A stretch of DNA of 64,000 nt from Parcubacteria group bacterium M6-OD1-1 (GCA_003056085.1 LSNK01000002.1:42485-106484); one strand, 5' to 3'; positions 10,029 to 43,643 are shown, counted from the stretch's first letter. Made by a program: numbers and translations. Notes: generated by a model not told the origin, from the sequence alone.

Positions 10029-10163
10029 AACATTTAGCTTAATAAAGCTTAAAAATTTAATTTCTTAGCTTAATCAGCTTATAATAAAACAATACAAATA
10101 ACAATACTGGAGCTATAAAAAAACAGCCCCTAAAGATGCGGGCTGTTTTCTTAAAAAACTATT

Positions 10164-10400
10164 TTATTTCTTTCTTTTTACAGTTTTTTTCTTAGCAACT
10201 CTTTTTTTAGGAGCTGCTTTTCTTTTTATAGTTTTTTTCTTAGCAGCTGCTTTTCTTTTTGGAGCAGCCTTCCTCTTTACTACTTTCTTTTTAGCAACTC
10301 TTTTTTTAGGAGCTGCTTTTTTCTTTACTACTTTTTTCTTAGCAACTGCTTTTCTTTTTGGAGCTGCTTTTTTTCTTGTTGTTTTTTTCTTTACTGGCAT
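10164..10400 (-). CDS. Histone H1/Hc1-like lysine/alanine-rich DNA-binding protein built from tandem KKRVAKKKVVKRKAAPK-type repeats
   Basis: 78 aa, about 45% Lys; the underlying DNA is a tandem repeat with a period of about 60 nt. Confidence 0.55.
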   Translation of the reverse strand: MPVKKKTTRKKAAPKRKAVAKKKVVKKKAAPKKRVAKKKVVKRKAAPKRKAAAKKKTIKRKAAPKKRVAKKKTVKRKK

Positions 10401-10670
10401 TTTTTTATCAAATTTATTTCGTAATAATCTCTTTTATTTTTTGCCTTAAGGCCAGTTCACTAAAAGTGAAAAAATTATACGTTATAAATCTAAAACATTA
10501 TTTTAAAAACATACGACCTTTGAAAAAATTATTAAACTAAAAACTTATAAAAAACTTTTTCCTAACTTAATTATACTATAAATTAAAAATAAAAATAACT
10601 GTGGACAACTAAAAATTATTAATTTGTAATATTTTTTACCAAAATTAAAATTTAACTTCAATATTTTACC

Positions 10671-10706
10671 CGTAGCATATGGTGACGGTCGTCACCATAT
10701 GCTACG
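10671..10706. repeat. Perfect 16-bp-stem palindrome cgtagcatatggtgac-ggtc-gtcaccatatgctacg
   Basis: Read directly; shares the apex tgacRgtcgtca with the neighbouring hairpin. Confidence 0.6.
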
Positions 10707-10763
10707 TTAAATTAAATTTTAATTAAAACAATGAAATAATTTTTCAATTAAAATTTTAACTCC

Positions 10764-10817
10764 TAAAAAAATAACAACATTTCTGACAGTCGTCAGAAAT
10801 GTTGTTATTTTTTTATT
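10764..10817. terminator. Bidirectional terminator for murB: 18-bp perfect stem aataacaacatttctgac-agtc-gtcagaaatgttgttatt flanked by A7 and T8
   Basis: Read directly. Confidence 0.65.
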
Positions 10818-10857
10818 TTATTTAATTTAAAGTAAAATAACTTGCTTAAAATAAATT

Positions 10858-11817
10858 CTAAAAACCAAGAAATCTTAATTCTTCCTCCAACTCCACACCA
10901 AACTTTTCTTTGACTATTTTTTTAATTTCAAAAATTAGTTTATGAATATCTTTTGCTTTTGCATTATTTTTATTTACAATAAAGTTTGCATGCCTTTCTG
11001 AAACTTTAGCCCCGCCAATTTCAAAGCCTTTAAGACCTGCTCTGTCTATTAAAAAGCCAGCAGGCACGACTCCCCTCCTGACAAAAATAGAAAACTCGGG
11101 AATTTCTTTCCAAATATCCAAAGGAACATCTTTTCTTTCTGAAAGATCAATATTTTTAAAAACACACCCTTCTGATTTTTCAGAAAGAGGTTGATGACTC
11201 CTTCTAAAAAGCATATTTTCCGCCATTTTATCCATAATAACAACCGGATCATCTTTTTTAAATTTAAGTTTTGCTCCCATTATTAAAAGTCCGTTTTTCT
11301 TAAACGAACTTCCTCTATACAAAAAACCGCAATCTTTTAATGCCACGTTTTTAAAAGTTAGAGTTATTGGATCCAAAACTTCTACAAAATCAACATTATC
11401 TGCTATTTGACCTCCGCAGGATCCGGCGTTTCCAAATATAGCTCCGCCTAAAGTTCCTGGAAGTCCGGCCGCCCATTCAAGTCCTGACAATCCATTTTTC
11501 TTTGCGCTATTTACCAAAGCTCCCATTGGAACTCCGGAGCCGGCAAAAACAGATTCCTCCTGACAATCAAAATCGATATTTTGAATTTTATTTTTTATTA
11601 TTAAACCGTTAAAACCTTTATCAGATGCCAAAATATTCGTTCCTCCGCCCAAAATATAATACTGCATGTTATTTTGGTTTGCAAAAAAAACAGCGTCTTT
11701 TAATTCTTCCTTTTTTTCAGCTTCAATAAAAATATTAGCATTTCCTCCAACGCCAAAAGCGCTATGTTCTGATAAAGGTATATTTTTATATATTTTTTTG
11801 AATTTATCCAATTTCAT
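10858..11817 (-). CDS. murB: UDP-N-acetylenolpyruvoylglucosamine reductase MurB
   Basis: FGVGGNANIF...YYILGGGTNILASD FAD-binding domain; C-terminal MurB fold. Confidence 0.9.
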   Translation of the reverse strand: MKLDKFKKIYKNIPLSEHSAFGVGGNANIFIEAEKKEELKDAVFFANQNNMQYYILGGGTNILASDKGFNGLIIKNKIQNIDFDCQEESVFAGSGVPMGALVNSAKKNGLSGLEWAAGLPGTLGGAIFGNAGSCGGQIADNVDFVEVLDPITLTFKNVALKDCGFLYRGSSFKKNGLLIMGAKLKFKKDDPVVIMDKMAENMLFRRSHQPLSEKSEGCVFKNIDLSERKDVPLDIWKEIPEFSIFVRRGVVPAGFLIDRAGLKGFEIGGAKVSERHANFIVNKNNAKAKDIHKLIFEIKKIVKEKFGVELEEELRFLGF

Positions 11818-11841
11818 AATTATTTATTTGCATTTTACAAT

Positions 11842-13545
11842 TTAAAGAAATATATCAAAACCTTCCTTATATAATTTTAATTCATTTCTTGAGATTTTAA
11901 AAACCGAATCAAAGGTTCTTCCGCCTTTTAAAAACTTTTCTGCAGTCATATTAAGCCAATGCTTCGTGCCGTCCGGGTTTATTTGATAAACTTTAAAATC
12001 TCCTTCCGCCAAAACAAGAGAACTCTCTTTATAAAAATCAAATTCTTCTCTGCTTAAAACAACGATAGACGACGCATCATAAAAATTTAATATTTTCTCA
12101 TTTTTTATATGTCTTAAATACCCACCCTTTACAACATAAACCTTAAAGTCCCAAGCCGGTCTCACAAGCGACCCGTCCGGCAGTAATTTACGCTGAATTT
12201 TTTGAGTAACTATATTAGTTTCTGAATTTTTACTTTTTGTTGTAATTTTAATAATGAAATTTCTTTTTGGTTCATCATCGGAAAAATCACTTAACTTTGT
12301 TTTTGAAGTTGGAATTAAAATAATATCTTTAATTTTACTTCCAAGACCCAAAAGCGCAAGAGACCCTTTATTGTTTTTTATATCCATATCACCGATTGAA
12401 ATATTTCCATTTTTTTCATTTAAAATATAAGTCATATCAAAAACTCCTTCATTTTTTCCTTCAAATTCAATATTTAAAAATTCTGTATTACCAAAATACT
12501 TTATCCATGACTGTTGCCAGTCTTTTAGGAGATAACTAAAACCTTTAGTGTCTCCATCAGACACCTGATAAGAAACTGCCGGCTCTATTTGAAAACTAAT
12601 ATTGGGATTTAAATATTTTGAATCCTTCAAAAAAATATTTTTTTGACTTAAATAATTTGTAATTTGCCATTTTTTGAAAACATCAGAAAAAGAAACAGTG
12701 TACCCGAGTTTTTTTAGAGCATCATTTATGCTTGCTATCCCAACACTGTCACTTTGAATCATTTCTTTAAATATATTATCTCCGTAATTATCGGCTAAAT
12801 ACTGCGAAAATACACTAACAACAGCATAATCTGCTGAATCGTTTTGCCATTCGGTTAAAGAATCCCACGGACTTTTTGAGAAATTCTTTACTCTAGATTC
12901 CAAAAAACTATTTTTATAAGGAGAATTATACCCTAAAAACTCCAAAGCATATTCACTTCTTAATTCATTTAACCAAATATCCTCTGCTATATTTTTTTGT
13001 ACTTCTTTATTATTAATACTTATGAGATGTTGAAATTCATGAGCAAAAAAACTATACACGTAATCTTTATTTATAAAATCAGAATTTAAATAAATAATCT
13101 CTTTTTCATTTGTCGCGTCCCTATTGACTTGAGTTTTCAAAAAAGCATCCGCAGTATTTACATAACCTCCATTGCCTTTTTTCAAATCAAAAAATAAAAT
13201 ATACACCTTCTCATCTCCGTCTATACCGGGACTTCTTATATTGCCGAATTTCTCTGTTAATATCGGATAAATTTTTTCATTATACTCTTTTGAAATCTTT
13301 TTTAAAGAATTTAAAACTTCGGAAGTTTCGTTTGAATTTAAAGAATTAAAATACTCATCATCAACAAAAAAATGAGCGCGCGGACCCTCAAACCTAAGCG
13401 TCGCTTTAAGCTCCGTTTTTCCATTTTCTGAAAATTCAGAATCAACAAAAAAACTCTGCACCTGACCTAAAGACGCGGCATTTGCCAAATTAAATTGAGC
13501 AAAAACAGCTAAAAATACAAATATTGGTAAAAGTTTGAAATTCAT
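11842..13545 (-). CDS. Secreted protein with a signal peptide and an HExxH motif (putative zinc metallopeptidase-like). The start is taken at MNFKLLPIFVFLAVFA.
   Basis: Signal peptide ...FAQFNLANA; FAHEFQHLI. Confidence 0.5.
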   Translation of the reverse strand: MNFKLLPIFVFLAVFAQFNLANAASLGQVQSFFVDSEFSENGKTELKATLRFEGPRAHFFVDDEYFNSLNSNETSEVLNSLKKISKEYNEKIYPILTEKFGNIRSPGIDGDEKVYILFFDLKKGNGGYVNTADAFLKTQVNRDATNEKEIIYLNSDFINKDYVYSFFAHEFQHLISINNKEVQKNIAEDIWLNELRSEYALEFLGYNSPYKNSFLESRVKNFSKSPWDSLTEWQNDSADYAVVSVFSQYLADNYGDNIFKEMIQSDSVGIASINDALKKLGYTVSFSDVFKKWQITNYLSQKNIFLKDSKYLNPNISFQIEPAVSYQVSDGDTKGFSYLLKDWQQSWIKYFGNTEFLNIEFEGKNEGVFDMTYILNEKNGNISIGDMDIKNNKGSLALLGLGSKIKDIILIPTSKTKLSDFSDDEPKRNFIIKITTKSKNSETNIVTQKIQRKLLPDGSLVRPAWDFKVYVVKGGYLRHIKNEKILNFYDASSIVVLSREEFDFYKESSLVLAEGDFKVYQINPDGTKHWLNMTAEKFLKGGRTFDSVFKISRNELKLYKEGFDIFL

Positions 13546-13712
13546 ATTTTTATTATACCATAAGAAAAAAGAAAAATTTGCCAAAAACAAAAAGCCAGCC
13601 GGAGGCAACTCTAAATTCCAAATGTAATAAAAGAGTTCAATCCAGCTGACTTACATACAAGTTTAACAAAAAAATAAAAAATATTTAAATAAAGATATCC
13701 ACAACCTAAATT

Positions 13713-15011
13713 TTAATATCTCAGCAATTTATGAGCCTCTTGCCATATGTCCCCCGCACCCATAAAAATCACGACAGAATCTTCATTTAAATATTTTTTG
13801 CAATGCTTTATTATATCTTCTTTGTTTTTTACATAAATTGATTTTTTGCCTATTCTGTCTGATATTTCTTTTATACTTACATTTTTATCTATAGATTCTC
13901 TTGCCGAAGAATAGACATCCATCAAAACAACTTCATCTGCCAAATCTAAAGCATTAGAAAAATTATCAGAAAACTTTTTTGTTCTTGAATAAGTATGCGG
14001 TTGAAAAACCGCTATTATTTTTTTACTAAAAAACATATTTCTTACTCCGAGTAAAGTTGCCTTTATTTCAGACGGGTGATGAGCGTAGTCATCCACTATT
14101 GTTGTTTTTTTATTTTTACCTAAAATCTCAAATCTTCTTGCTGTTCCTTTAAATTCTTCTATGTATTTTTTTGCATCATCTTTTGAAACATCCAATTCCA
14201 AAGCAGAAAGATAAGCGGCGTTTGCATTATACAAGTTGTGCTCCCCGGGAATCTTTATCTTAAGATCAACCAATTTATCTTTCCCGTAAAAAATAACCTT
14301 ACACTTTAAATTTTTTGTTATTTTTATAATTTCCTCGTAGTCTCTGTTAGCCACCAAAAAACCATTTTCTGAAATACTTTCTGCAAATTCTAAAAATACA
14401 TCTTCATACTCTTCTTTTGTTTTGTAACAATCAGGATGATCATAATCTATACTTGTTATAACAGCCGCCTTTGGCTTGTATCTTAAAAATGCTTTTTTAT
14501 ATTCATCCGCCTCAAGAACAAATATAGCATCGTTTTTTTTAATATCATTTATTTTGGCGCCGCTTCCCCATTCATTAACCTTAGAACCGACTATTGCATT
14601 CACATTTTTCCCCGCCCTATCCAAAATATAAGCCAGCATCGCCGTTGTTGTAGTTTTTCCGTGGCTTCCTGAAACCGCAACCCCAAATTTATTATTAAAA
14701 AACCAAGAAATAACTTCCGGGTATGTAAAAACAGGAATGCCTAAATCCTCCGCTTTTTTAATGTCAGTGTTGTTTTCCTTGTTGTAAGCCACCGACCTCA
14801 CAACAGCATCAACCGCAGAGAAATCATTCTCCGAAAAACCAAAAACAGAAATTCCAGCTTTTTTTAAAGCCGAATCTGTCATAAACTCTTCCGGCACATC
14901 AGAGCCTGAAACCTCACACCCGCTATCTTTTAAAAATTCTGCAAGCGCAGCAACCCCCACTCCCTTTATTCCTACAATATAGATTTTTTTGTATTTTTTA
15001 GAATCAAACAT
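13713..15011 (-). CDS. murC: UDP-N-acetylmuramate--L-alanine ligase MurC. The start is at MFDSKKYKKIYIVG, which avoids overlap with the upstream gene.
   Basis: IYIVGIKGVGVAALAEFL..., VAVSGSHGKTTTTAMLAYIL. Confidence 0.92.
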   Translation of the reverse strand: MFDSKKYKKIYIVGIKGVGVAALAEFLKDSGCEVSGSDVPEEFMTDSALKKAGISVFGFSENDFSAVDAVVRSVAYNKENNTDIKKAEDLGIPVFTYPEVISWFFNNKFGVAVSGSHGKTTTTAMLAYILDRAGKNVNAIVGSKVNEWGSGAKINDIKKNDAIFVLEADEYKKAFLRYKPKAAVITSIDYDHPDCYKTKEEYEDVFLEFAESISENGFLVANRDYEEIIKITKNLKCKVIFYGKDKLVDLKIKIPGEHNLYNANAAYLSALELDVSKDDAKKYIEEFKGTARRFEILGKNKKTTIVDDYAHHPSEIKATLLGVRNMFFSKKIIAVFQPHTYSRTKKFSDNFSNALDLADEVVLMDVYSSARESIDKNVSIKEISDRIGKKSIYVKNKEDIIKHCKKYLNEDSVVIFMGAGDIWQEAHKLLRY

Positions 15012-15012
15012 T

Positions 15013-16509
15013 TTATTTAAATTTTCTCCTAAGAAAAAAACCTCCCACAAAACCAATTATTATAAAAAATGAAAGAAAAAGTAAATTATCAAAAGCAAAA
15101 GAACTTACATTTGCGCTTAAATTTACACTACTTCTTTTATCCGGCAGCGACTCCTCCTCACCTAAAACCATAGCATAAGCGGGCTCTGCCAAAAAACTTT
15201 TCTGTCCGCCTACTTTTACAAAAGATGCCCAATTTTTTGATATTAAATTTTTGGAGACTCCTTTATTTAAATTCACCTTTGCAGGCTCAAGGCCAACATT
15301 GCTATCGTCAAAATAAGTAGTCACATTTTTGAACCCCGGCGTTTTATTTTTTGTTAAGACAAATTCTTTCTCATTTTTTCTTGAAGCGGAAAATTTATCA
15401 TCTGAAAAATCGTACTCCACCTTATCAATCGCCTGTCCGTTGGGATACAAAAAAGCCAATTCTCCTTTTTGTCTTATTATATCGCTTCCTAAAATATCTT
15501 CAGAAAAAACTAAATATGAAAATGAAGCTAAAAAAGTCCCATCCGGGATTATAAATGTATTTTCTCCATTGGTGAATTTCCAACCGGAAACATCAATAAA
15601 ATTTTCTGAATCATTATAAACTTCCAGCCAACCATTTTTGTTATTCTCCCCAGAAAAAAATTCCGAAATATACACTCCAACAGGATAAATAGTTACCTCT
15701 ATCTGACTTTGGCTCCTATAAGCTCCTTGTTGGACAAAAAGCGTAACTAAATATTTCCCCGGGAAATTATAACCATACAAAAAACTTTCTCCTTTTTTTA
15801 CATTCCCATTCCCCATATTCCAAGAAAAATCTAAATTATTTCCTTCTGACTTTGAACCGTCAAAAAATATATTCTGCCCCACTTGCGCCACAATATTTTC
15901 TCCGGCATCCGCTCTCACAAAAACAGAGCTTCCAGCCCCTGTTGCAACACTTTTTACATCAATAACTTCAAAATTATCTGTTTTTTGTATTTCTTCTTGT
16001 TGTAAATTTTCCTTAAGTACTGTATTTTTATTTTCAGCTCTTGGAGTTGAGGTTGCGCTAATCCACCCGCCCGAAACTCTCTGTGCCGTTTGTTTTGTCT
16101 CATTGTCCCCAAAAGCGGCTTCCCAGCTATTTGACCCGTCTACTCTATCAACTTCAACTCCGATTGAGTTTTTTAAAATCAATATTTCTCCCGAATTTGA
16201 AAGAGCGCCGGAATATATCTTGTCTGCCGCAACATTTGGCACTGTCTTGTCGTCCACTCTTTCAAGTAAAAAATATCCGTTTCCTTCTATGTTCCCCTCA
16301 AGCTCTATTTTTGGACTGCCGTCTTGCGCCTCCAAAACCCAACCGGAAACATCAACACTACTTGAGCTTGTATTTTTTAACTCTATCCATTCGTCATTTG
16401 CAGACACCTCTGTCCCCATCCATGCAATCTCGTTGATAAAAACTTGAGCGTTCACGCCAAATGGAATAATAAATATTGTAAAAAGTAAGATACTGTAAAT
16501 TATCTTCAT
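15013..16509 (-). CDS. Cell-surface protein with two lamin-tail domains (LTD) and a C-terminal TM anchor
   Basis: Signal peptide; VFINEIAWMGTEVSANDEWIELKNTSSSSVDVSGWVL and YISEFFSGENNKNGWLEVYNDSENFIDVSGWKF LTD signatures. Confidence 0.65.
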   Translation of the reverse strand: MKIIYSILLFTIFIIPFGVNAQVFINEIAWMGTEVSANDEWIELKNTSSSSVDVSGWVLEAQDGSPKIELEGNIEGNGYFLLERVDDKTVPNVAADKIYSGALSNSGEILILKNSIGVEVDRVDGSNSWEAAFGDNETKQTAQRVSGGWISATSTPRAENKNTVLKENLQQEEIQKTDNFEVIDVKSVATGAGSSVFVRADAGENIVAQVGQNIFFDGSKSEGNNLDFSWNMGNGNVKKGESFLYGYNFPGKYLVTLFVQQGAYRSQSQIEVTIYPVGVYISEFFSGENNKNGWLEVYNDSENFIDVSGWKFTNGENTFIIPDGTFLASFSYLVFSEDILGSDIIRQKGELAFLYPNGQAIDKVEYDFSDDKFSASRKNEKEFVLTKNKTPGFKNVTTYFDDSNVGLEPAKVNLNKGVSKNLISKNWASFVKVGGQKSFLAEPAYAMVLGEEESLPDKRSSVNLSANVSSFAFDNLLFLSFFIIIGFVGGFFLRRKFK

Positions 16510-16522
16510 AAAATTAAAAATT

Positions 16523-17098
16523 CTATTTTGAAAGTTTTTTCAAAATAGTCGGTATTTTTTTAAAATCTTCTTCTAATGTTTCTCTTAACCCTCCATTGTA
16601 AAGTGCGGCGGCAGGATGATAAAGCGGGAGAATATTAAAGGTTTTTTTTGTTTTTTTATTTACAATCTTCTTAGGCTTTCCATGAACATCAGAAATTTTA
16701 AAAGTATTAGGCAAAAAACGATACATAGAATGCCTGCCTAAAGTTGCCACCAAAAGAGGATTTATAAGCTCCAATTGTTTCCATAAATATAAATCTGAAC
16801 ATATATCAGCTTCATCATCCTGTGGATCTCTGTTGTTTGGCGGACGGCATTTTACGATATTTGTTATAAAAACATCTTCTCTTTTTAAACCTATAGACTC
16901 TATCATAGAGGTTAAAAATTTACCGGCGGCGCCGATAAATGGTTTGCCTTCCAAGTCTTCCGCTTTCCCGGGAGCTTCACCGATAAAAACAATTTTAGCC
17001 TTAAAATCTCCATCTCCAAAAACAGCATTGGTTCTTTCTTTGTAAAGCCTGCACTTTTGGCATTTTTTTATCTGTTTTTCCAAATCTTTTAAGTTCAT
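16523..17098 (-). CDS. Uracil-DNA glycosylase, family 4
   Basis: CQKCRLYKERTNAVFGDGDFKAKIVFIGEAPGKAEDLEGKPFIGAAGKFL. Confidence 0.85.
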   Translation of the reverse strand: MNLKDLEKQIKKCQKCRLYKERTNAVFGDGDFKAKIVFIGEAPGKAEDLEGKPFIGAAGKFLTSMIESIGLKREDVFITNIVKCRPPNNRDPQDDEADICSDLYLWKQLELINPLLVATLGRHSMYRFLPNTFKISDVHGKPKKIVNKKTKKTFNILPLYHPAAALYNGGLRETLEEDFKKIPTILKKLSK

Positions 17099-17164
17099 GC
17101 TTTAAAGAATAACAAAAAAAAGCAATCATAGCAAAACTCATACTTAAGCACTCAATACTTAAAT

Positions 17165-17196
17165 AAAATACAATTAAAAAAGCGGGTTCAATAGAA
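17165..17196 (-). terminator. Terminator (agcgggttctattgaacccgct plus T6 on the minus strand)
   Basis: Read directly. Confidence 0.6.
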
Positions 17197-17455
17197 CCCG
17201 CTATGAAGAATCTTTCTCGGCGTAGGAATAAATGGCGATAATCCATTATGCTCTAAGCATGGTTTTAATATGCTTCACTGGCCTTATTGACTCAGTGTGA
17301 TCAAGGGTGTCTATCCCCATCAACAGATTATCATTTATTTACATTCTTCGTGCCTACCCATTCACCTGATGTCGGAGTAGAATGGTCTCCGTTATTACTA
17401 TTATCGTAACATAAGAACCCTCCTTTTTGCATCCTGGCATTAACTAATCACTTAA
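17165..17455 (-). ncRNA. Candidate small RNA or leader of about 290 nt with its own promoter and terminator and no ORF longer than 28 codons. It contains a consensus SD (AAAGGAGGG) 7 nt upstream of a 3-codon mini-ORF (ATG TTA CGA TAA).
   Basis: -35 TTGACA/-10 TAACAT with a 17-nt spacer at 17489-17461 (minus); terminator at 17165-17196; GC above the local background. Confidence 0.3.
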
Positions 17456-17460
17456 GTAAA

Positions 17461-17489
17461 ATGTTAGCATATTTATCAAAATTTGTCAA
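17461..17489 (-). promoter_or_regulatory. Sigma-70-like promoter TTGACA-17nt-TAACAT
   Basis: Read on the minus strand. Confidence 0.4.
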
Positions 17490-17523
17490 TAGTTTTGACG
17501 AAAAATACAATCATCACAAAAAA

Positions 17524-17546
17524 AATCGCTCAAGTTGAGCGATTTC
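17524..17546 (-). terminator. Terminator for the 17548..17823 gene (atcgctcaagttgagcgat plus T8 on the minus strand)
   Basis: Read directly. Confidence 0.55.
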
Positions 17547-17547
17547 A

Positions 17548-17823
17548 CTAATAGCACATTTTATCTGTTGGAAGCAATTTATGCATAGAAAAAATTGTTT
17601 CAATTACACCAAGAAGGTAATATGCTTTTTTTATATCCCCATTTTCATATGACTCTTCTGCAAGAAATATTAAGAAGTGAGCATGCATAAGCGCAAATCC
17701 TCCATTGCAGAGAAAATTTATATCGCTTTTTGGCATTTCTTGAGAAACTATGCATGAGCTCTTAAAATAATCTTTGTATCTGTCTAATCGTGCTTCAAAA
17801 TCTTTATGGTCTGCAGTATTCAT
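17548..17823 (-). CDS. Hypothetical 91-aa protein (GC-richer islet)
   Basis: ORF with its own terminator. Confidence 0.4.
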   Translation of the reverse strand: MNTADHKDFEARLDRYKDYFKSSCIVSQEMPKSDINFLCNGGFALMHAHFLIFLAEESYENGDIKKAYYLLGVIETIFSMHKLLPTDKMCY

Positions 17824-17924
17824 AATATTTCTCCTTTTGCATTTTTGTAACGCGGATACTCTACTAACTCATAGTTAAATTTTTTCTTGTATTTGTCAAG
17901 CGTTTAAATAAATTTCAAAAAAAA

Positions 17925-17952
17925 GCGGCCGGGAAGCAAAGTCCCGGCCGCA
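17925..17952 (-). terminator. GC-rich terminator gcggccgggactttgcttcccggccgc plus T8 (minus)
   Basis: Read directly. Confidence 0.7.
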
Positions 17953-17959
17953 ACACTTT

Positions 17960-19780
17960 CTAACTGCGTAATTCTCCAAGCTGTTGAAGCTTAACGAGCT
18001 TCGCATAAAGTCCATTGTGAGCCACTAATCGCTTGTGGTCTCCCTCCTCAATTATACTACCTCTATCCACTACACATATTTTATCCGCCATTTCAATAGT
18101 AGACAATCTATGCGCAATAGCCACAATTGATATGGACATTTCTTGTCTTAACTTCCCTATCATTTCTTGAATCGCCTTTTCCGCCTCGCTATCCAAGCTT
18201 GAAGTTGCCTCATCCAAAATAAGCACTTTTGCGCCATTTAAAAGAGCGAGGTATGCACGGGCAATGCCGACGCGTTGTCGTTCTCCTCCTGAAAGCCTGA
18301 CTCCTCTTTCGCCAACCTGCGTATTTAGACCATCGGGAAATCTACCTGTTTTTTTAAGCACAGAAACAAGATGAGCTGCATTAACTGCTTTAAGTATCTG
18401 ATCTTCTGATGCATCTGGACAAGCATAAGCGATATTTTCTCGCAAACTTAAATCAAAAATATCTACATCTTGCTGAACAGTTGCAAAAAGTCCGCGATAC
18501 CAGTTGCGATCAAGAGTACGGATATCTCTTCCGTCCAATGTTATACTTCCATCAGAAACATCATATACTCTGGCAAGCAAACGAACAACCGTAGATTTTC
18601 CTTCTCCACTTTTTCCGATAATTGCTGTCATCTGTCCTTGTGAAATACCCATATCAAAACTCTCAAGAATAAGTCTGCTTTTTTTGCTATAATAAAAACT
18701 GACATTATTAAATATAAACTCGCCACGATATTCACTCAAAATACCTGTTTTCGCATCGAGATTATTGTTTTGTACATCAATATTTGCACTCAATAAATCT
18801 TTCATGCGATATACCTCTACGATATCTTGCATCATTTTAGAGTATATTCTCACAATATTCTGCAAAGACCCCATAGATATGCCACCCGTTGCTATAAGAT
18901 ACACAAGAGTTCCAATATTAACCTCACTAAGAGAAACAAACCAAATGCCGGTCAGAAGTGCCGTTGAAAAAGCACCGCGCAAAACAAACCCAACAAAAAA
19001 CATCTCTTTTTGCATAGACAAGTGAATGCCAAGGTCAATTTTTTCCATACTGCCTCTTACTTCCTCCATGCGCCTTTTTTCCGTTTCTTCTTGTATAAAC
19101 CCCTGGACTGTAGCTACATTGATTATAGACTGACACAAAAATCCATTAGACGTTTCATTTTTACTTGACCATTCATTCCAGCTTGGAACACGCTTATCAT
19201 ATATACGCTTCACCAAGACAGCCATAGGAATAAATGGAGCAAAAAATATCAATGCCAGCACAGGACTTAGTGTCAGCATAATTACAAAATTTATCAGAAG
19301 ATAAAATACATTCGGCAAAATACCATCTAAAATGTTGCCTAAAAGCTCAATCATCTTGTCGCAGCCTTTGTTTATTTTTGTTACTTTTTTACCTGTATTT
19401 TCTTTCTCATGATACCCTTGGTGTAAAGCAAGCATTTTTTGCTGCACAACAACAGGCCACCAATTTTCAAGCCGTATAATACTTTTGAAAAAAATCGGAT
19501 TCTTAAAAAAATGATTCAAAATAAGTGCAAAAACAGGAGCAAGCGTCGCCATGACAAGTAAGAGTATGAATTGTTTATCATACCCATGCTTAATTACATT
19601 TGGCAATGCATTAACCACAAGATTAAGTGTATAAGGAATCATAAGAAAGACCACCTCAACACACAATATAACGAACACAAGCTTAATAATTCTTCCTTTC
19701 TCATCTCCAAGTAAATCCCATAAAATAGACAAACCTTTGATAAAAAATGAGCTGCTCCTATCTTCTTTTTTATTCTCCAT
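17960..19780 (-). CDS. ABC exporter, fused permease-ATPase (MsbA/type-1 exporter family); atypically GC-rich
   Basis: 6-TM domain plus GKSGEGKST Walker A, LSGGERQRVGIARA signature, ILDEATSSLD. Confidence 0.9.
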   Translation of the reverse strand: MENKKEDRSSSFFIKGLSILWDLLGDEKGRIIKLVFVILCVEVVFLMIPYTLNLVVNALPNVIKHGYDKQFILLLVMATLAPVFALILNHFFKNPIFFKSIIRLENWWPVVVQQKMLALHQGYHEKENTGKKVTKINKGCDKMIELLGNILDGILPNVFYLLINFVIMLTLSPVLALIFFAPFIPMAVLVKRIYDKRVPSWNEWSSKNETSNGFLCQSIINVATVQGFIQEETEKRRMEEVRGSMEKIDLGIHLSMQKEMFFVGFVLRGAFSTALLTGIWFVSLSEVNIGTLVYLIATGGISMGSLQNIVRIYSKMMQDIVEVYRMKDLLSANIDVQNNNLDAKTGILSEYRGEFIFNNVSFYYSKKSRLILESFDMGISQGQMTAIIGKSGEGKSTVVRLLARVYDVSDGSITLDGRDIRTLDRNWYRGLFATVQQDVDIFDLSLRENIAYACPDASEDQILKAVNAAHLVSVLKKTGRFPDGLNTQVGERGVRLSGGERQRVGIARAYLALLNGAKVLILDEATSSLDSEAEKAIQEMIGKLRQEMSISIVAIAHRLSTIEMADKICVVDRGSIIEEGDHKRLVAHNGLYAKLVKLQQLGELRS

Positions 19781-20335
19781 TTTATTCTACCTCTCAGTGG
19801 TTTTATGCAAAATTACGCAATATATATTTACCCGAGACAATTTCAGGTAAAATTTAAAAAGAACAACGCCTCGAAGAGCGAGACGTTGTTTAAATCTTTT
19901 ATTTATACTATGCAAAATTAGTTTTATCTATAAAATTTATTTTTAAAAATAAATAACTGTAAAAAATTTAAAATACTTCCCGCCCTGAAATTTTGAGCTG
20001 TCATATATGAAATTGTTGATGATAACATCATTCTTGGCATAAAAATGCGTACTAAAACAGAAGACGCAAAAAATACACCAAGACTAAAAGCACTAGAAAG
20101 CGCTCTCATCCAATTCATATTCATTTTTACATTATTTATTTCCATTATTTTAAATTTATATTCATTCAATACAATCTTCATTGCGTTAAATACTAATATA
20201 TCTTATATAACACAAAGAAAAAAATATGTCAAATTAAAACATACTAAAATTCCCTAATAATAACTTAGTCAAATATTTAATTTACTTTTGATCAAACTTT
20301 TGATATAAATACATCAAAGGCATTAACCTAAAATT

Positions 20336-20908
20336 ATGTTAAATTACAACGAACTAAAACCGGGCATATTTATAACCTTCAAAGACAATCCTTATGAAAT
20401 TTTAGAATATGATTTTTTAAGAATGCAGCAGAGAAAACCGGTTGCTCAAGTAAAAATGCGAAACTTGATTACAAAAAATACTCAAGCACACACTTTTCAC
20501 CAAGGAGACAAAATAGAAGAAGCTGATATTTCTCATGAAAATATTAAATTCTTATACTCCAATAAAGATGAGTTTTGGTTTTGCAAGGAAAATGACCCCA
20601 AAGAAAGATTTAATTTTACAAAAGACCAATTGGGACAAAAAACTAATTTTTTAAAAGAAAATACACTCGTTGATGCCTTAATTTTCAACGATAAAATTAT
20701 TGACATAAAACTCCCTATAAAAATAGACCTTAAAATAGTTGAAGCACCTCCGGGAATTCGCGGAGATACAGCTCAAGGCGGAACAAAACAAGCCACGCTT
20801 GAAACAGGGGCCTCGGTTAATGTGCCATTATTTATAAACCAAGATGACATAGTAAGAGTCAACACAGAAACCGGACAATACATGGAAAGAGTCCAAAAAT
20901 CAAAATAA
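20336..20908 (+). CDS. efp: Elongation factor P
   Basis: KPGKxxA-like ...RKPVAQVKMRNL..., GIRGDTAQGGTKQATLETGA matches the EF-P GDTAGTGGKPATLSTGA. Confidence 0.95.
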   Translation: MLNYNELKPGIFITFKDNPYEILEYDFLRMQQRKPVAQVKMRNLITKNTQAHTFHQGDKIEEADISHENIKFLYSNKDEFWFCKENDPKERFNFTKDQLGQKTNFLKENTLVDALIFNDKIIDIKLPIKIDLKIVEAPPGIRGDTAQGGTKQATLETGASVNVPLFINQDDIVRVNTETGQYMERVQKSK

Positions 20909-20982
20909 AAAATATCAACTACACACCATTTTATATTAAGAAATGATAATTGATATCAAAAATATTCAAATTTTTCAGGAAA

Positions 20983-21010
20983 CAAAAAATCGCCTTTAGG
21001 CGATTTTTTG
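20983..21010. terminator. Bidirectional terminator (aaatcgcc-ttta-ggcgattt, A-run and T-run)
   Basis: Read directly. Confidence 0.65.
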
Positions 21011-21019
21011 TTTTAAACT

Positions 21020-21193
21020 TTACCTTCCTTCTTCCTCCTCTACGTCCACCTCATCAAAAGCTCCCCAATGTTCACCGTCAATACAATTACACTCTTCTAA
21101 AGTATGTCCCTCCAAAGAACATCCTTCTGTTTGGCAGACCCCCGGAGTATCTGAAACTCCTTTGCATCCGCCTGTACAAATATAATGCGGCAT
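21020..21193 (-). CDS. 57-aa cysteine-rich small protein (MPHYICTGGCKGVSDTPGVCQTEGCSLEGHTLEECNCIDGEHWGAFDEVDVEEEEGR); below the ORF-track length cutoff
   Basis: Own translation; 8 Cys in the N-terminal 37 aa, acidic tail, GC-richer than the surroundings, last gene before the terminator. Confidence 0.45.
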   Translation of the reverse strand: MPHYICTGGCKGVSDTPGVCQTEGCSLEGHTLEECNCIDGEHWGAFDEVDVEEEEGR

Positions 21194-21233
21194 ATTTTTA
21201 AAAATTAATTATTATTAATTTTATACTAATAAA

Positions 21234-21824
21234 TTAATTTAATTTTTTATATGTCATCTTTTTCAAATCTTTCCACCAATCTGTAAATTCAGTATCTTTC
21301 ATTATTTTTATAATTTTTTTTGCAGATTCCGTCTCAAGCGCCTTCTCTACATTATTTATCCAATCCTGAGACGATTTATAACCCATGTCTAAATACTCTT
21401 TTGCTTGAAACGCCACTTCAAGCCAATCAGCATCTTTTGCCACGACTCCCTCCTTGGTATTTCTATTTTCATATTCCAAAAAATATTCTGTCCATTTTTT
21501 CTCTATTTCTTCTCCTAACCCTTGAATTTGTTCTGAAAATGCGGTTTTTTCACCTTCTTTTTGCGAAAAATAACGAGCAGACACCTTATGCTGGTCTCCC
21601 ACTCTCGCTTCTCCATTATCATGAATTATCATCATAGATGCAACTTTTTCAGGGTTTGCATCTCCTTCCATAACCGCCAAGATGTACCCTATTTGCGCGG
21701 CTCGCAAAGAATGCTCTGCAACAGTATCAGGATTTTTCACTCCGGCGAGTAAAAACCCTGTATGCCTTTGACGCTTAAGCTGACTTAATTCAAATATAAA
21801 ATTAACTATTTTTTTTGTATTCAT
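21234..21824 (-). CDS. HD-domain phosphohydrolase (YfbR-like)
   Basis: HSLRAAQIGYILA...IIHDNGEARVGD. Confidence 0.7.
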   Translation of the reverse strand: MNTKKIVNFIFELSQLKRQRHTGFLLAGVKNPDTVAEHSLRAAQIGYILAVMEGDANPEKVASMMIIHDNGEARVGDQHKVSARYFSQKEGEKTAFSEQIQGLGEEIEKKWTEYFLEYENRNTKEGVVAKDADWLEVAFQAKEYLDMGYKSSQDWINNVEKALETESAKKIIKIMKDTEFTDWWKDLKKMTYKKLN

Positions 21825-21840
21825 ATTTTATATGATAAAT

Positions 21841-23577
21841 TTAAAACTTAACAGTTTGCCCCGGTTTTAAAACCCCTGATTTTTTATCTTCCTCCTTTTT
21901 ATCACTTATTTTCTTTCCTGAAAAAGTTCTGGCACCCATCTTAAAAGCTTCTGCAAGAGATACTTCTTTGTCACCCGTACTTATAACTTTAAGATCCCCT
22001 TTTTGTATTTTATGAGCGGGCGCTGTTGCTTCTGAAGCCTCTTTTTTTATTTCTTTAGCCTCTTCTTCTTTCATATCTTCTGTTTTTTTATTTTCTGAAA
22101 TATCAGTTTGAGGTTTATTTTCCTTTTGAATTTTAGGTTTTTTAGCTTCTTCTTTTGCTTGTTCTTTTTGAACCTCAGCATAACAATCTTTGCAAAAAAC
22201 ATCTCTTTTTGGGTCCGGCTCAAAAGGCACTTGCGTTATCTTCTTGCACCTTGAACATGTAGCATCATAAAGTTTAACATTTGGTTTTTCTTCCGCCCCT
22301 ACCGGACTGCTCCATTCTGATATCTCTTTTTCCACATCTTCCCTTTTTGTGCTGTATTTTTTTCTTGATAACTCTATTATCTCTTTGGCGAAACTTTCTT
22401 CGTTTGGAATTGCCGGAGGCAAGGTGTCCGCAGAAAACGCGCTTGAAGAAACGCCGTCTATCATCAGTTTTAAATAGATTTTATAATTTGGCAAGTTTAC
22501 AAGGCTCTGCAGGTCAACCTGCGGAGCAAATTCTTTTTCAAAAAATTCAGCATCCTCAGCTCCGATTCTAAATAAAACCAAAGTCCCGACATTCCCCATA
22601 ATAGCCTCTTTAACTCCTGTATCGCCCAACTGATCCAAATACTGATGTGTTAATATTAAATTCAAACGATATTTTCTTGCCTCAGACAAAATATCAGCAA
22701 AAGATTCCGTTGAAAAGTTTTGAAACTCGTCTATGTACACAAAAAAGTCTTCTCTTTCTTCTTCGTTTGCTATATCAACTCTGGACATAGCGGCAAGTTG
22801 AATTTTGGTAATTATCATAGCACCTAAAAGCTTTGCCGTATCTTCTCCTATTCTTCCTTTTGAAAGATTTACTATAAGGATTTTCTTTTTGTCCATTATT
22901 TCTCTTATATTTATAGACGATTTTTTTTGTCCTACAATATTTCTTATCAAAGGATTAGTCAAAAACTGCCCGACTTTATTTTGTATTGGAGCTACCGCCT
23001 CAACTTCAAATTTTTGAGAATACTTTGAATACTCATCCAACCAAAAAGCCTTTATAACCGGGTCTGTCACCTTATCTATAACACTTTTTCTGTACTCTTT
23101 GTCAGAAAACATTCTCATAATACCCAAAAGAGTGCTGTCCGGGTCTTCAAGCAATGCCAAAATAGTATTTCTTAAAACATATTCAAGTCTTGGACCCCAA
23201 GAGTCCGCCCAAAGCTTCTTAAAAATTCCTATAAGACCGGATGCCACAAGGTGCCGTTCACTCATACCGACGCTTTCTGCGATATTAAATGCCATCGGAT
23301 TATCAATGTCAGCGGGGTTAAAATACACGATATCATTTTTTCTGTGCTCCGGAACATAATCCAAAATAGACTCAGCAAATTCACCATGAGGATCTATAAC
23401 AGCAACTCCATGTCCTGCTCTTATGTCTGCCACCATCATATTTTTCAGCAAAGTTGATTTACCTGCTCCGGTTTTCCCAATCGTATACATATGACGCCTT
23501 CGGTCATCTGTTTTGATGCCAAAAACTTGTTCTTTGTTTCTGAAATTTGTTTTTGCAAATGGTACTACGTCTTCCAT
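21841..23577 (-). CDS. HerA/FtsK/TraD-superfamily P-loop ATPase (DUF87-like) with a C-terminal CxxC...CxxC zinc ribbon and a K/E-rich tail
   Basis: Walker A IGKTGAGKSTLL, Walker B FFVYIDEFQNF, ARKYRLNLILTHQ arginine-finger region; CSRCKK...CKDC. Confidence 0.7.
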   Translation of the reverse strand: MEDVVPFAKTNFRNKEQVFGIKTDDRRRHMYTIGKTGAGKSTLLKNMMVADIRAGHGVAVIDPHGEFAESILDYVPEHRKNDIVYFNPADIDNPMAFNIAESVGMSERHLVASGLIGIFKKLWADSWGPRLEYVLRNTILALLEDPDSTLLGIMRMFSDKEYRKSVIDKVTDPVIKAFWLDEYSKYSQKFEVEAVAPIQNKVGQFLTNPLIRNIVGQKKSSINIREIMDKKKILIVNLSKGRIGEDTAKLLGAMIITKIQLAAMSRVDIANEEEREDFFVYIDEFQNFSTESFADILSEARKYRLNLILTHQYLDQLGDTGVKEAIMGNVGTLVLFRIGAEDAEFFEKEFAPQVDLQSLVNLPNYKIYLKLMIDGVSSSAFSADTLPPAIPNEESFAKEIIELSRKKYSTKREDVEKEISEWSSPVGAEEKPNVKLYDATCSRCKKITQVPFEPDPKRDVFCKDCYAEVQKEQAKEEAKKPKIQKENKPQTDISENKKTEDMKEEEAKEIKKEASEATAPAHKIQKGDLKVISTGDKEVSLAEAFKMGARTFSGKKISDKKEEDKKSGVLKPGQTVKF

Positions 23578-23613
23578 AAATTTAACTTATTATTTTAAAT
23601 TACAAACACCACC

Positions 23614-24867
23614 TTAAACAATCGGCAAATCTGAAGGCGGTTGTACTTTTTTAGTTTGAATTTTTGGTAAAGAAGGAGCCTCAACTATAACAGAAGGAAT
23701 GTGATAAACCGTTGCCAATTCTTCAACATTTAAAATTATACCTTTACTGGAAAATAATTTTCTTCTCGCATTCCTATAAAGTTTTCTTTTTCTTAAATAA
23801 TTTCTGGTTTTAGCGAAAAAATAATCAACATTTGGAGACACTTTAAAACTTGGCATAAAACCATTTAAATTAGCTGAAGAAAATTGATTAAATGTCCCTA
23901 AAATTGCCGGAATATTTGCTCTTGAAAACACGCCTCTCCTTCCAATATACAATATTCTTATATTTGTATGAAACCCATGCTTGGAAATACTCTCTTCTAA
24001 TATTTTTACAAGCTCTATTTCACCAGGAGAAAGTTTTTTATCTTTTTCTTGACCTTCTTCCTGCTTTTTTTTGTCCTCCGGGACTCTGCCAAAAAGATAC
24101 CAAACCATATCATAAAAAAACATAAATACCTCTTCAACTACATTGTCGGCGGGCTTTTTTTTATTTTTCCCTAAAATCCTATCTATAAGATCTCTGCCTT
24201 TTTTCTGCCACGCATCTCCAGCCGGCCTTACCATATAATGAACCCATATCTGCTCTCCTTCACCTATTTGAGCCAAAGCCTCCATCAAAGAAGACATTGG
24301 GTCTATAAATTGAGCCTTCGCCTCAATACTCAATTGAATATCTTCTTTAAAATTTTTGTATGTTTTTATGGGGTATGCATCTTCTTTTGTAAAAACAAGT
24401 TCCGTCCCCCACATATCATAATCCTCATTTGGGATATCCGCCGGTAAGTTAAATGTATAATCATCCACCTCTACAAAATTAGCGTCCGAATAATAAGCCA
24501 AAAATTGAGATGTTATTAAACTTTTAAATTGACTTGGAGTTCTTATAAAAAGATGGATGCTGCCATTTATGCTTGCAACTTCAAAAGAAATTTCCGGCTG
24601 ATGCTTGCCATGGATATATTTTTCTATTATAGTCGATCTTGACCTTATAGAATAAATACCCGTGAAAATATGCTCCATAACCTTCGGTGTTTTTTCCACA
24701 ACCTGAGGAATTTTTATCTCAAGAACCAACCACTTGAGGTTAAGACTATACTTTAATCTAACATAATCCATCCATAAGTTTTTCCACACCAAAAAAAGAA
24801 GGATAGGCAGCACCACCCATCCCCAACTAAACAAAAGATCAATAAAATCTGAGAAACCTACTTCCAT
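23614..24867 (-). CDS. Membrane-anchored protein (N-terminal TM, large soluble domain) cotranscribed with the HerA-like ATPase
   Basis: WGWVVLPILLFLVW TM; 36-nt gap to the ATPase gene. Confidence 0.5.
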   Translation of the reverse strand: MEVGFSDFIDLLFSWGWVVLPILLFLVWKNLWMDYVRLKYSLNLKWLVLEIKIPQVVEKTPKVMEHIFTGIYSIRSRSTIIEKYIHGKHQPEISFEVASINGSIHLFIRTPSQFKSLITSQFLAYYSDANFVEVDDYTFNLPADIPNEDYDMWGTELVFTKEDAYPIKTYKNFKEDIQLSIEAKAQFIDPMSSLMEALAQIGEGEQIWVHYMVRPAGDAWQKKGRDLIDRILGKNKKKPADNVVEEVFMFFYDMVWYLFGRVPEDKKKQEEGQEKDKKLSPGEIELVKILEESISKHGFHTNIRILYIGRRGVFSRANIPAILGTFNQFSSANLNGFMPSFKVSPNVDYFFAKTRNYLRKRKLYRNARRKLFSSKGIILNVEELATVYHIPSVIVEAPSLPKIQTKKVQPPSDLPIV

Positions 24868-24936
24868 AAGTTATTAGAACCCTTTTAGACAATATTTTTC
24901 TTGCGATAGGAAGAGCTACATCACACAGCGGGTTTA

Positions 24937-25995
24937 CTATGCTTTATAAATATATCTTCCATCTTCTATTTTCTCAAAAATATCATTATTTTGCAAGTTT
25001 AACATCACCGTATTTTCTTTTACATCTCTTTCTTTTAAAACGGCGTTTAATATCTCTTGCTTTTTCATAGGTTTTTTGCTGTCTTTTAAAACTCTTTTTA
25101 AAACATCCGAGACAGTTCCTGACTTGTATCCCCACTCCGACAAAGCATATGTACCCCTGCCAACTAAGATAAATTTTTTGTCTTTTATAAGTTCATTATG
25201 CACTGTTTGAGGATGCGCCTTTTTCTTATCATTAAATTTTTCATTTATCTTATCAACCACAAATCTGAAATGCATCGGTTTTTTGTGTTTTTTCAACACC
25301 AAATAAGCCTTATCACGAACCCCCTTGGTTGATATTTCAGACCAATGCTTAATACCGTAGTCCTCATAAACATTTGAAGAAATGTTTTTTGACATAACAA
25401 GATATGACTCTAAAGTTTTTTGAGTAGCTCCGTCAGAAACAATTTGAGAAAGCCAATCCAATAGTTCTTTTTTTGTTATAGTATTTTTATGAGCTTCAAT
25501 CTTTTTTATTAAAGACTCTAAAGATTTCTTTGTTATCTGAACTACTGATTTTTTTGTTGACCAAACACCATGAAAATCAGGATTCTCCGGAGTTTTTATA
25601 AATTTATTTCCAATATTCAATAGAAAATACATCAAAGCCTCAGCGTCCTTTTTCGCCGCTTTTTTTGAAAAAAACATATCAAGATCAGAATTTAAAAAAT
25701 GATGCTCAACCCTCAAGCCTCCGTGTTCTTCTATATGACTTACCAAGGCGTCAAAAAAAGAATCTAAATTTTTTATTTCTTTAGATTTTAAAAACGCTGC
25801 TTTGGCATCGTTTTCTATTTGCCTAACTCTTTCTCTTGTAATATTGTAACCGCGTCCTATTTCCTCAAGAGTTTTTCTTTTTCCATCGGAAAGACCGAAT
25901 CTTTTTGTTAAAATATCCCTTTGTTTTTTAGATAAAGATAATAAAATATTTTCTGTTATTTTTTTGACATCAATTTTTCCTGTTTTGTTGCTCAT
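24937..25995 (-). CDS. Sigma-70 region-4 HTH domain protein with a C-terminal HARE-HTH (RpoE-delta-like) domain
   Basis: TLEEIGRGYNITRERVRQIENDA (sigma r4); C-terminal PMHFRFVVDKINEKF...FILVGRGTYALSEWGY (HARE-HTH pattern). Confidence 0.55.
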   Translation of the reverse strand: MSNKTGKIDVKKITENILLSLSKKQRDILTKRFGLSDGKRKTLEEIGRGYNITRERVRQIENDAKAAFLKSKEIKNLDSFFDALVSHIEEHGGLRVEHHFLNSDLDMFFSKKAAKKDAEALMYFLLNIGNKFIKTPENPDFHGVWSTKKSVVQITKKSLESLIKKIEAHKNTITKKELLDWLSQIVSDGATQKTLESYLVMSKNISSNVYEDYGIKHWSEISTKGVRDKAYLVLKKHKKPMHFRFVVDKINEKFNDKKKAHPQTVHNELIKDKKFILVGRGTYALSEWGYKSGTVSDVLKRVLKDSKKPMKKQEILNAVLKERDVKENTVMLNLQNNDIFEKIEDGRYIYKA

Positions 25996-26097
25996 ACTTT
26001 TGTCTCTTTTTATTTTTATAAATAAGGTAGCTTTTACTTTAGCACAAAGACTAATATTAGTCAAGAGAAATTATGAAGTTAAGCTAAATCTCAAAAC

Positions 26098-28566: not shown

Positions 28567-28607
28567 TAAAAAAGAAAGGAGGTGATATATCATCACCTCC
28601 TTTTTAA
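28567..28607. terminator. Bidirectional terminator aaaggaggtgat-atatc-atcacctccttt
   Basis: 12-bp stem flanked by A/T runs. Confidence 0.6.
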
Positions 28608-28610
28608 AAA

Positions 28611-43613: not shown

Positions 43614-43643
43614 AGCCTAAATTATACCATAATTCTCAATTCT

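Follow-up and report, generated by a model that had tools for sequence, protein, structure and literature searches.

Between efp and the udg-LTD-murC operon of Parcubacteria group bacterium M6-OD1-1 lies a run of minus-strand transcription units, the last of which has a promoter, a ribosome-binding site and a terminator around a sequence with no long open reading frame (ORF). Is this last unit a gene and, if so, what does it make? We examined the 64,000-nt stretch of DNA on which it lies (GCA_003056085.1, LSNK01000002.1:42485-106484; hereafter the window), in which positions are counted from the first letter. Four minus-strand units, each with a terminator of its own, lie in the span between efp and the operon (17099-20335): an 85-aa ORF, an ABC exporter gene (ABC1), a gene for a 91-aa protein and, at 17181-17489, the unit in question, which runs from promoter to terminator and has a predicted RNA of about 270 nt. 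A reading made from the sequence alone (the sequence-only reading) had placed the unit beside a GC-rich, horizontally acquired islet, and had offered a small RNA (sRNA), a leader-peptide or attenuator-type regulator, or a decayed gene as explanations for it. The unit has promoter, ribosome-binding and terminator signals, is placed between two terminators, has a gene-like composition and persists in two alleles. Our best reading, which we advance tentatively, is that it is a self-contained small gene whose main product is RNA, either a riboregulator or a dual-function RNA.

The signals named in the sequence-only reading are all in place. The -35 box TTGACA and the -10 box TAACAT stand 17 nt apart at 17489-17461, with ten of 12 matches and, in addition, a TG extension of the -10 box. 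A Shine-Dalgarno sequence (SD; AAAGGAGGG, 17426-17418) is followed, after a 5-nt spacer, by the mini-ORF ATG TTA CGA TAA (17412-17401), so that the two together occupy 17401-17426; the mini-ORF is trailed in frame by TAG TAA TAA, which adds three more stops at 17400-17392. The unit closes with an intrinsic terminator of its own (17175-17202), whose hairpin at 17202-17181, AGCGGGTTC-TATT-GAACCCGCT, has a 9-bp stem with six GC pairs and leads into T6. The independence of the unit was likewise upheld: the terminator of the 91-aa gene (17522-17546), which begins 1 nt past the stop codon, lies directly upstream of the unit's promoter, and the second terminator closes the unit. We also checked whether the unit corresponds to the 3' untranslated region of the 91-aa gene in relatives; there the terminator comes right after the stop codon, and nothing like the unit lies downstream. 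Terminator-like sites are enriched in the region 16000-21000 (nine found, 2.7 +/- 1.5 expected from shuffled sequences), and the four best of them stand exactly after the 85-aa ORF, ABC1, the 91-aa ORF and the unit.

The composition of the unit also resembles that of genes. Its predicted transcribed body (17203-17453, about 250 nt) has a uniform 38-40% GC throughout; the promoter has 19%, and the spacer that separates the unit from the uracil-DNA glycosylase gene (UDG) has 22%. The GC-richest intergenic window of 250 nt in the whole 64 kb lies inside the unit (40.8%, against an intergenic mean of 27%), and the next two richest hold small protein ORFs, one of 57 aa at 21020-21193 and one of 68 aa, led by an SD, at about 59624-59419. 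All six reading frames are stop-rich across the body of the unit; thus one long ORF does not explain its GC composition.

A second allele of the unit is found in two loci from other assemblies, one of which (L099) is 98.1% identical to the window over 2.2 kb and the other (L100; GCA_003056185.1, LSNV01000043.1, aligned to window positions 9928-26072) 98.7% identical over 16 kb. In this allele the promoter is kept, with a -10 box that has changed from TAACAT to TAATAT and so stands nearer to the consensus; the core of the SD is kept as well (GGAGGG to GGAGAA, the whole reading AAAGGAGAA), as is the mini-ORF, all four stops included, and the terminator is identical. The body of the unit differs between the alleles by zero to one single-nucleotide polymorphism (SNP) in 237 nt. 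Most of the variation falls in a patch at 17418-17463, where seven SNPs and a 4-nt indel, an insertion in this allele, extend from the -10 box through the leader to the 3' edge of the SD; with eight events, this is the densest 46-nt cluster of differences in the 16 kb compared. We do not regard the patch as hypervariable, as the next two windows hold seven and six events and it is only slightly above them. The divergence between the window and L100 is a mosaic that varies by gene from 0 to 2.8%: it is 0% in a 319-aa gene, 0.2% in a 588-aa gene and 2.7-2.8% in LTD, UDG and a 578-aa gene, which suggests frequent recombination within the population. Against such a background, the quiet body of the unit is not significant evidence of constraint.

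Could these signals be no more than chance matches in a spacer left behind by an insertion or by the activity of an insertion sequence (IS), so that the unit has no function? We consider this improbable. The limits of the stretch with 38-40% GC coincide exactly with the promoter and the terminator, in a region where spacers have 19-27% GC, a strong terminator serves no purpose unless transcription runs into it, and the signals are retained in both alleles. On the other side, promoter-like sites are not enriched over shuffled sequences, nine of the ten AAGGAGG sites in the window precede no real gene start, and an IS in L100 abuts a copy of local sequence that ends 8 nt upstream of the -35 box, a position that marks the junction as recombinogenic.

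The SD of the unit stands out in this genome. The heptamer AAGGAGG occurs only ten times on both strands of the 64 kb, and about ten of 49 genes have any SD-like motif upstream, the other 39 or so starting after plain AT-rich leaders. ABC1, the 91-aa gene and the unit, three in a row, all have an SD-like motif, a pattern that incidentally points in the same direction as the insertion described below. Two further observations concern initiation signals. In a related locus, L007, the UDG gene appears to have almost no leader, a TATAAT standing 6 nt before its ATG. An intergenic palindrome at 28576-28610 of the window carries a consensus SD opposite its own complement (AAAAAGGAGGTGATGATATATCACCTCCTTTCT).

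If the unit is a small RNA gene, its expression may be pictured as follows. Transcription would begin at about 17453 from the near-consensus, extended -10 promoter and would end at the hairpin at 17202-17181; the resulting RNA would be about 270 nt long. Near its 5' end, on one of the few consensus SD sequences of the genome, ribosomes would load and would translate either Met-Leu-Arg alone before meeting four stops or an overlapping ORF of 33 codons (37 in the second allele). By analogy with SD elements known from Bacillus, their loading would protect the 3' domain further down, about 200 nt long, or would regulate it, and the RNA would then act as a riboregulator or as a dual-function RNA. 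What we observe is the signals, their arrangement, the composition and their persistence in two alleles; we infer transcription, ribosome loading and any function.

The comparison that underlies this picture is with the 5' SD stabilisers of Bacillus, such as the STAB-SD of cryIIIA and the element of the hbs mRNA. These stabilisers protect downstream mRNA that codes for protein, in which they differ from the unit, where no long ORF follows the SD. In B. subtilis, initiating ribosomes at a strong SD are described as blocking decay by 5' exonuclease (PMC5737220). The unit resembles the stabilisers in having a consensus SD about 30 nt from its predicted 5' end, with no real gene after it; ribosomes bound there could shield the RNA. 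Dual-function sRNAs (SR1/SR1P, RNAIII/hld) offer a second likeness, in that the unit is predicted to give a short independent transcript with a small ORF at its 5' end and a long non-coding 3' part; unlike them, it has no target, homologue or significant structure that we could find, and the N-terminus of its ORF differs between the alleles. A more specific version of our reading, which we offer as speculation and think rather improbable, is that the unit is a young dual-function riboregulator confined to the strain cluster of one species, in which the 3-codon ORF serves as a landing pad that loads ribosomes and thereby stabilises or gates the RNA, and in which the fast-diverging first 40 nt form a variable recognition or regulatory region.

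Several results weigh against the reading as a small RNA gene and account for the caution with which we hold it. The 25 promoter-like sites in 16000-21000 are no enrichment over the 18.7 +/- 4.2 expected, so that the promoter match of the unit is by itself weak evidence, and the small number of SNPs in its body, which we considered as a sign of selection, is not significant against mosaic divergence of 0-2.8%. The unit belongs to no Rfam family: Rfam 15 gave no match in the 64 kb at gathering thresholds, and at E values of up to 10 the region 17050-17600 gave only scores of 9-23 bits, against cutoffs of 40-100 bits. Its homologues are confined to two near-identical alleles of one species; among the loci collected around UDG, ABC1, genes of the 91-aa family and the 85-aa ORF, nhmmer and blastn found it in the same species only. 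The fold of the unit has z = -2.33 with the terminator, but without it is no better than that of shuffled sequences (z = -0.79); for the 3' domain by itself z is -1.88, and for the opposite strand -0.10. The predicted 5' fold differs between the alleles. In the window allele the SD region can pair with the 3' arm of the terminator (-14.6 kcal/mol, p 0.005-0.012); the second allele has lost this pairing, and nothing there compensates for the loss. A search for antisense targets among 49 translation start regions with RNAduplex did no better than shuffled sequences. Finally, as will be seen below, the 33/37-codon ORF has gene-like codon usage, which makes a protein product a live alternative.

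Other searches were similarly negative within their scope. The window holds no second copy of the unit, and ARAGORN found no tRNA or transfer-messenger RNA. The unit was not found in phages and plasmids by blastn, nor in viral contigs by exact-pattern scans; a metagenome scan with a 25-mer from the SD and mini-ORF returned nothing, and one with a 22-mer from the terminator returned only the strain variant L099. Direct repeats that bracket the unit (17109-17136 with 17501-17532, and 17150-17169 with 17443-17462; about 80% identity over 20 nt) were set aside, as they are, by our estimate, at about the level expected by chance in AT-rich DNA.

The main alternatives concern protein. The sequence-only reading had stated that the unit contains no ORF over 28 codons; this is inaccurate, as the minus strand has an ATG ORF of 33 codons at 17331-17432 (MQKGGFLCYDNSNNGDHSTPTSGEWVGTKNVNK) and the plus strand a TTG ORF of 40 codons. 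An 81-codon ORF that starts in the unit (17246-17001) continues across the terminator and into UDG; it is spurious. The first AUG of the window allele opens a different ORF of 28 codons, which is destroyed in the second allele by the 4-nt indel; there, to judge by the alignment, the indel brings this upstream ATG, at 17440, into frame with the tail of the 33-codon ORF to give an ORF of 37 codons with the same 28 C-terminal residues. The 37-codon ORF matches P0132 and was called by a gene caller in L100. We scored codon usage by the log-likelihood ratio (LLR) of coding versus non-coding frames, and the 33/37-codon ORF reaches +0.30 to +0.32 bits per codon, at the 96th to 97th percentile of 116 short ATG ORFs.

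The unit may accordingly be an mRNA for a protein of 33 aa in the window allele and 37 aa in the second, perhaps with translation also of an ORF of about 24 aa at 17320-17246. This we rank third among the explanations and think unlikely, although it accounts for several facts. The LLR equals those of bona fide small genes (+0.34 for the 57-aa and +0.32 for the 68-aa gene), the 28 C-terminal residues remain open and identical in both alleles despite the indel, the ORF was called in L100 by a gene caller, and most genes of this genome (39 of 49) likewise start after an AT-rich leader with no SD-like motif. Against these stand the lack of homologues (tblastn of the short-ORF peptides against all fetched loci gave chance-level matches only, and the peptide cluster contains the same allele only) and the position of the stop codon, which is 128 nt from the terminator as compared with 1-33 nt for other genes here; these last 128 nt are as GC-rich as the ORF itself. 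Furthermore, the consensus SD lies inside the ORF and positions ribosomes on the out-of-frame 3-codon ORF. The first AUG of the window allele opens the other, 28-aa frame, which is absent in the second allele, so that the N-terminus of the 33/37-codon ORF is not conserved. A single short ORF at p of about 0.03-0.04 is also weak evidence, given that several frames were inspected.

A close rival to the small RNA gene is the possibility that the unit is what remains of a small protein gene, about 85 codons long and no longer functional, which arrived with the insertion; its promoter, start region and terminator would have survived, whereas its frame would have been broken by frameshifts or rearrangement. 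We consider it doubtful, yet it explains much of what is seen. The body has coding-like GC throughout, and three colinear stop-free segments in three frames (33, about 30 and 28 codons) tile the unit, the last of them ending ...GFY-TGA in the loop of the terminator, much as the stops of other genes here lie beside their terminators. A frameshift-tolerant path of codon usage over the unit scores above shuffled sequences (p 0.036-0.062). Relatives have tandem 91-aa paralogues exactly at the place of the unit, and the SD-led ATG of the unit is 136 nt past the 91-aa stop codon, as compared with 132 nt in one such relative, L097. The path is only marginal, however: it scores 7.7, as against about 30 for real genes, it needs three frame switches, as do paths through shuffled sequences, and it is not significant against antisense controls (p 0.07-0.12). 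The SD-led frame has nine internal stops in 74 codons, which we estimate to be about the random expectation. Such heavy decay is, moreover, hard to square with a promoter, SD and terminator that are intact in both alleles.

A specific and attractive form of this explanation, a decayed tandem paralogue of the 91-aa gene, was rejected, none of the tests having given a significant result. A hidden Markov model (HMM) of the family found nothing significant in six-frame translations, peptide comparisons against shuffled sequences gave p of 0.12 and 0.03, and local DNA alignments to genes of the family were at the level of shuffled sequences. A frameshift-tolerant profile alignment gave p 0.06-0.075, and an nhmmer profile of the 5' regions of the family missed the unit even at E<=100.

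Another possibility is that the unit acts in cis, as a leader-peptide or ribosome-dependent attenuator of read-through into udg-LTD-murC. UDG is the next gene after the unit and shares its strand; the unit has an SD-led mini-ORF with a terminator at its end, and in the window allele can form the SD-terminator pairing of -14.6 kcal/mol. In these respects it is like the leader-peptide attenuators of erm, the cat leaders and bmrB-bmrCD, in which an SD-led, very short ORF and an intrinsic terminator precede a same-strand operon. It also differs from them. The ORF of the unit has only three codons, no conserved antiterminator is present, the gene that follows encodes a DNA glycosylase and has a promoter of its own, and the ABC exporter lies upstream and not downstream of the unit. 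UDG (16523-17098) is separated from the strong terminator of the unit by 82 nt of AT-rich spacer with 22% GC, and its promoter-proximal region (17099-17136; TGCTATGAT ... TGTTATTCTTTAAAGC-ATG), which lies outside the unit and was delimited by alignment with the related loci L007 and L006, keeps a promoter-like TGnTATTCT just upstream of the ATG, like the TGTTATAAT of L007. At the place where the window has TGTTATTCTTTAAAGC-ATG, L007 has TGTTATAATTAAAGG-ATG. The relatives have no such leader, the gap between efp and UDG in L007 being 124 nt, and the pairing is not retained in the second allele. We also know of no DNA glycosylase and cell-wall operon that is a target of leader-peptide control. 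Attenuation is very improbable; of the three options in the sequence-only reading, the sRNA and the decayed gene are both possible and the attenuator is disfavoured by the promoter-like sequence that UDG has kept.

How did the unit come to lie here? The closest relatives of UDG are in metagenome-assembled genomes of Candidatus Azambacteria or Patescibacteria, at 75-76% identity. In two related loci (L006 and L007) the gene order 417aa-578aa-efp-UDG-LTD-MurC-588aa is colinear with the window, at 46-76% amino-acid identity by tblastn, and between efp and UDG neither locus has a match for the 85-aa ORF, ABC1, the 91-aa gene or the unit. The efp-UDG gap is 124 nt in L007 and 3.2 kb in the window; it is therefore gene order, and not GC content, that identifies the block as a lineage-specific insertion. 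To judge by synteny, then, the 3.2-kb block was inserted in an Azambacteria-like Patescibacterium. On the other side of efp, a gene for an HD-domain (YfbR-like) protein and a 57-aa Cys-rich ORF (MPHYICTGGCKGVSDTPGVCQTEGC...), together at 21020-21824 on the minus strand, are absent from L006 and L007 and evidently form a second lineage-specific insertion; the 57-aa ORF has no family match.

The sequence-only reading had reached a similar idea by another route, from GC content, and here the route does not hold. The window has 32.8% GC and its genes range from 24 to 39%. The GC content of ABC1 (37.4%) is at the 92nd percentile of 1821-nt windows, about 1.5 standard deviations over the mean; that of the 2.7-kb span is 36.2%, at the 91st percentile of windows of equal size; and the 91-aa gene, which had been described as GC-richer than its surroundings, is below the window mean at 31.9%. 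At least seven other genes in the window also have 37-39% GC. In codon bias relative to all other genes, ABC1 ranks fifth among 23 long genes. Neither windowed GC nor codon usage therefore singles out the block, both lie within the range of host genes, and the listed homologues of ABC1 that carry an organism name are, down to 35% identity, from Patescibacteria; horizontal acquisition as a compositional island is not supported. Elsewhere in the window, a 1102-aa ORF (42909-47109, minus strand) is a better candidate for such an island than the exporter block: its codon usage deviates more than that of any other gene in the window (B=0.37), it has no Pfam match, 39% GC and a GC skew near zero, and it adjoins a gene for a 234-aa IS200-like Y1 transposase. 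Over the window as a whole the cumulative GC skew is monotonic, and 45 of the 49 ORFs of at least 85 aa are on the minus strand.

Traces of a mobile element are present in the second strain. At the equivalent of window position 26072/26073, L100 has an IS of about 1 kb (L100:1-1105) with a gene for a 306-aa rve transposase and inverted ends of roughly TAATGT..ACACACATATGGCGGTTTT. On the other side the IS is flanked by a 73-nt copy of window 17497-17565, which comprises the last five codons of the 91-aa gene and its terminator, so that the breakpoint corresponds to a point 8 nt upstream of the -35 box of the unit. The junction could be a rearrangement or an assembly path through a repeated IS. 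The 73-nt copy that abuts the IS marks the end of the 91-aa module.

The exporter itself is as the sequence-only reading had described it in position and kind. The ORF at 17960-19780 (minus strand) encodes 606 aa, with ABC_membrane (PF00664) at residues 33-297 (1.1e-17) and ABC_tran (PF00005) at residues 373-527 (3e-26). From its translation, the Walker A (GKSGEGKST), signature (LSGGERQ), Walker B (LILDEAT) and H-loop (AHRLST) motifs are intact; ABC1 thus has the transmembrane and then the nucleotide-binding domain of a type I ABC exporter in one polypeptide. In this order of domains and in these motifs it is like half-transporters of the ABCB/MsbA/Sav1866 type, and it also resembles a Patescibacteria-wide exporter subfamily at 45-63% identity. 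Its best NCBIfam match is TIGR02203 (MsbA), at 315 bits against a cutoff of 602 bits, and unlike the named exporters it falls under the cutoff of every curated NCBIfam equivalog (MsbA, CydCD, HlyB and others), so that its substrate cannot be named. The sequence-only reading had named bacteriocin or peptide exporters as examples of nearest neighbours to look for; ABC1 is a generic MsbA-like protein. Pfam finds no C39 peptidase domain in it, the transmembrane domain begins at residue 33, and TIGR01193 aligns only from model position 151. ABC1 is thus not a bacteriocin-processing exporter. Among the homologues listed, the best (in L089) is 63% identical and the rest are at most 52% identical; all those with an organism name, down to 35% identity, are from Patescibacteria, most of the list being without a name. 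ABC1 is an ordinary MsbA-like type I exporter. The GC-rich terminator GCGGCCGGGACTTTGCTTCCCGGCCGC that had been noted after it is present at 17925-17951 on the minus strand, with a 10-bp stem of which nine pairs are GC, followed by T8.

Upstream of ABC1, the 85-aa ORF (19924-20181, minus strand) is the first gene of the inserted block. It has a hydrophobic middle and an intrinsic terminator with a 12-bp stem and a T-run (19862-19890, minus strand), and it gave no match in Pfam, NCBIfam, PADLOC or PHROG; nor did the defence-system and phage libraries return anything for the small proteins. A variant that is 96% identical (P0131) is present in the second strain. By inspection, the DNA upstream of the L089 exporter resembles the 3' end of the 85-aa ORF and has a near-identical terminator hairpin. 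More distant homologues of ABC1, about 51% identical, likewise have a small hydrophobic ORF in front of them, 49-51 aa in length (L086:4820-4969, L087:4727-4882 and L088:2231-2386). Kinship between these and the 85-aa ORF was considered and dropped, as the similarity is not significant (E=0.34) and the analogy is one of position only.

The second ABC exporter reported for the window is also present (57533-59326, minus strand); it shares 27% identity with ABC1. Directly upstream of it, at 59419-59624 (minus strand), is a previously unlisted 68-aa gene (MNFDEALAVVHGAFYDVF...) with an SD (TAGGAGGTTCGTT-ATG), a terminator of its own and a codon LLR of +0.32. The stretch from SD to ATG in this gene nearly matches that of the unit (GGAGGGTTCTT-ATG).

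The 91-aa ORF was found where expected, at 17548-17823 on the minus strand. A word-indexed search with its protein returned only itself, and an exhaustive HMMER search returned four clusters (P0122-P0125), all of 91-92 aa and 39-53% identical to it; on this evidence it belongs to a very small family restricted to Patescibacteria. There is no match for it in Pfam, NCBIfam, PADLOC or PHROG. An AlphaFold2 model (AF2) shows three helices at a mean confidence (pLDDT) of 75, and a Foldseek comparison with the PDB gave no significant match, the fold being a generic three-helix bundle. The promoter and leader of the gene (TTGACAAATACAAGAAAAAATTTAACTATGAG...AAAAGGAGA, 17828-17903, minus strand) are shared with the family: an nhmmer profile built from the 5' regions of the relatives alone matches 17903-17828 with E=4.8e-8, in agreement with the alignment. 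In relatives (L090-L098) the family always stands in the same kind of context, which begins with an AddA-like UvrD/PDDEXK helicase gene and continues with one or two tandem 91-aa genes, a variable gene and an opposite-strand 121-aa gene, with an HhH-GPD glycosylase gene at the end; the tandem copies are intact in L095, L097 and L094. Its gene in the window has evidently been relocated beside a different DNA glycosylase, a family-4 uracil-DNA glycosylase. The repeated association of the family with DNA-repair genes may be meaningful.

Nothing at the locus is categorically new: the exporter is ordinary, the insertion real but unremarkable, the 91-aa family rare and orphan-like, and the unit a candidate small gene confined to the strain cluster of one species. 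The practical value of the analysis is mostly negative, in that the locus is neither a GC island nor the site of a known RNA family, and what it leaves is a small, well-delimited candidate. To our knowledge, which does not rest on a systematic search, almost no such regulators have been described for Patescibacteria. Should the unit prove to be transcribed and functional, it would offer a candidate riboregulator or small protein that arose very recently in these little-studied, uncultured bacteria, and its 3-codon ORF, if indeed translated, would be read in a genome that has largely dispensed with SD-led initiation.

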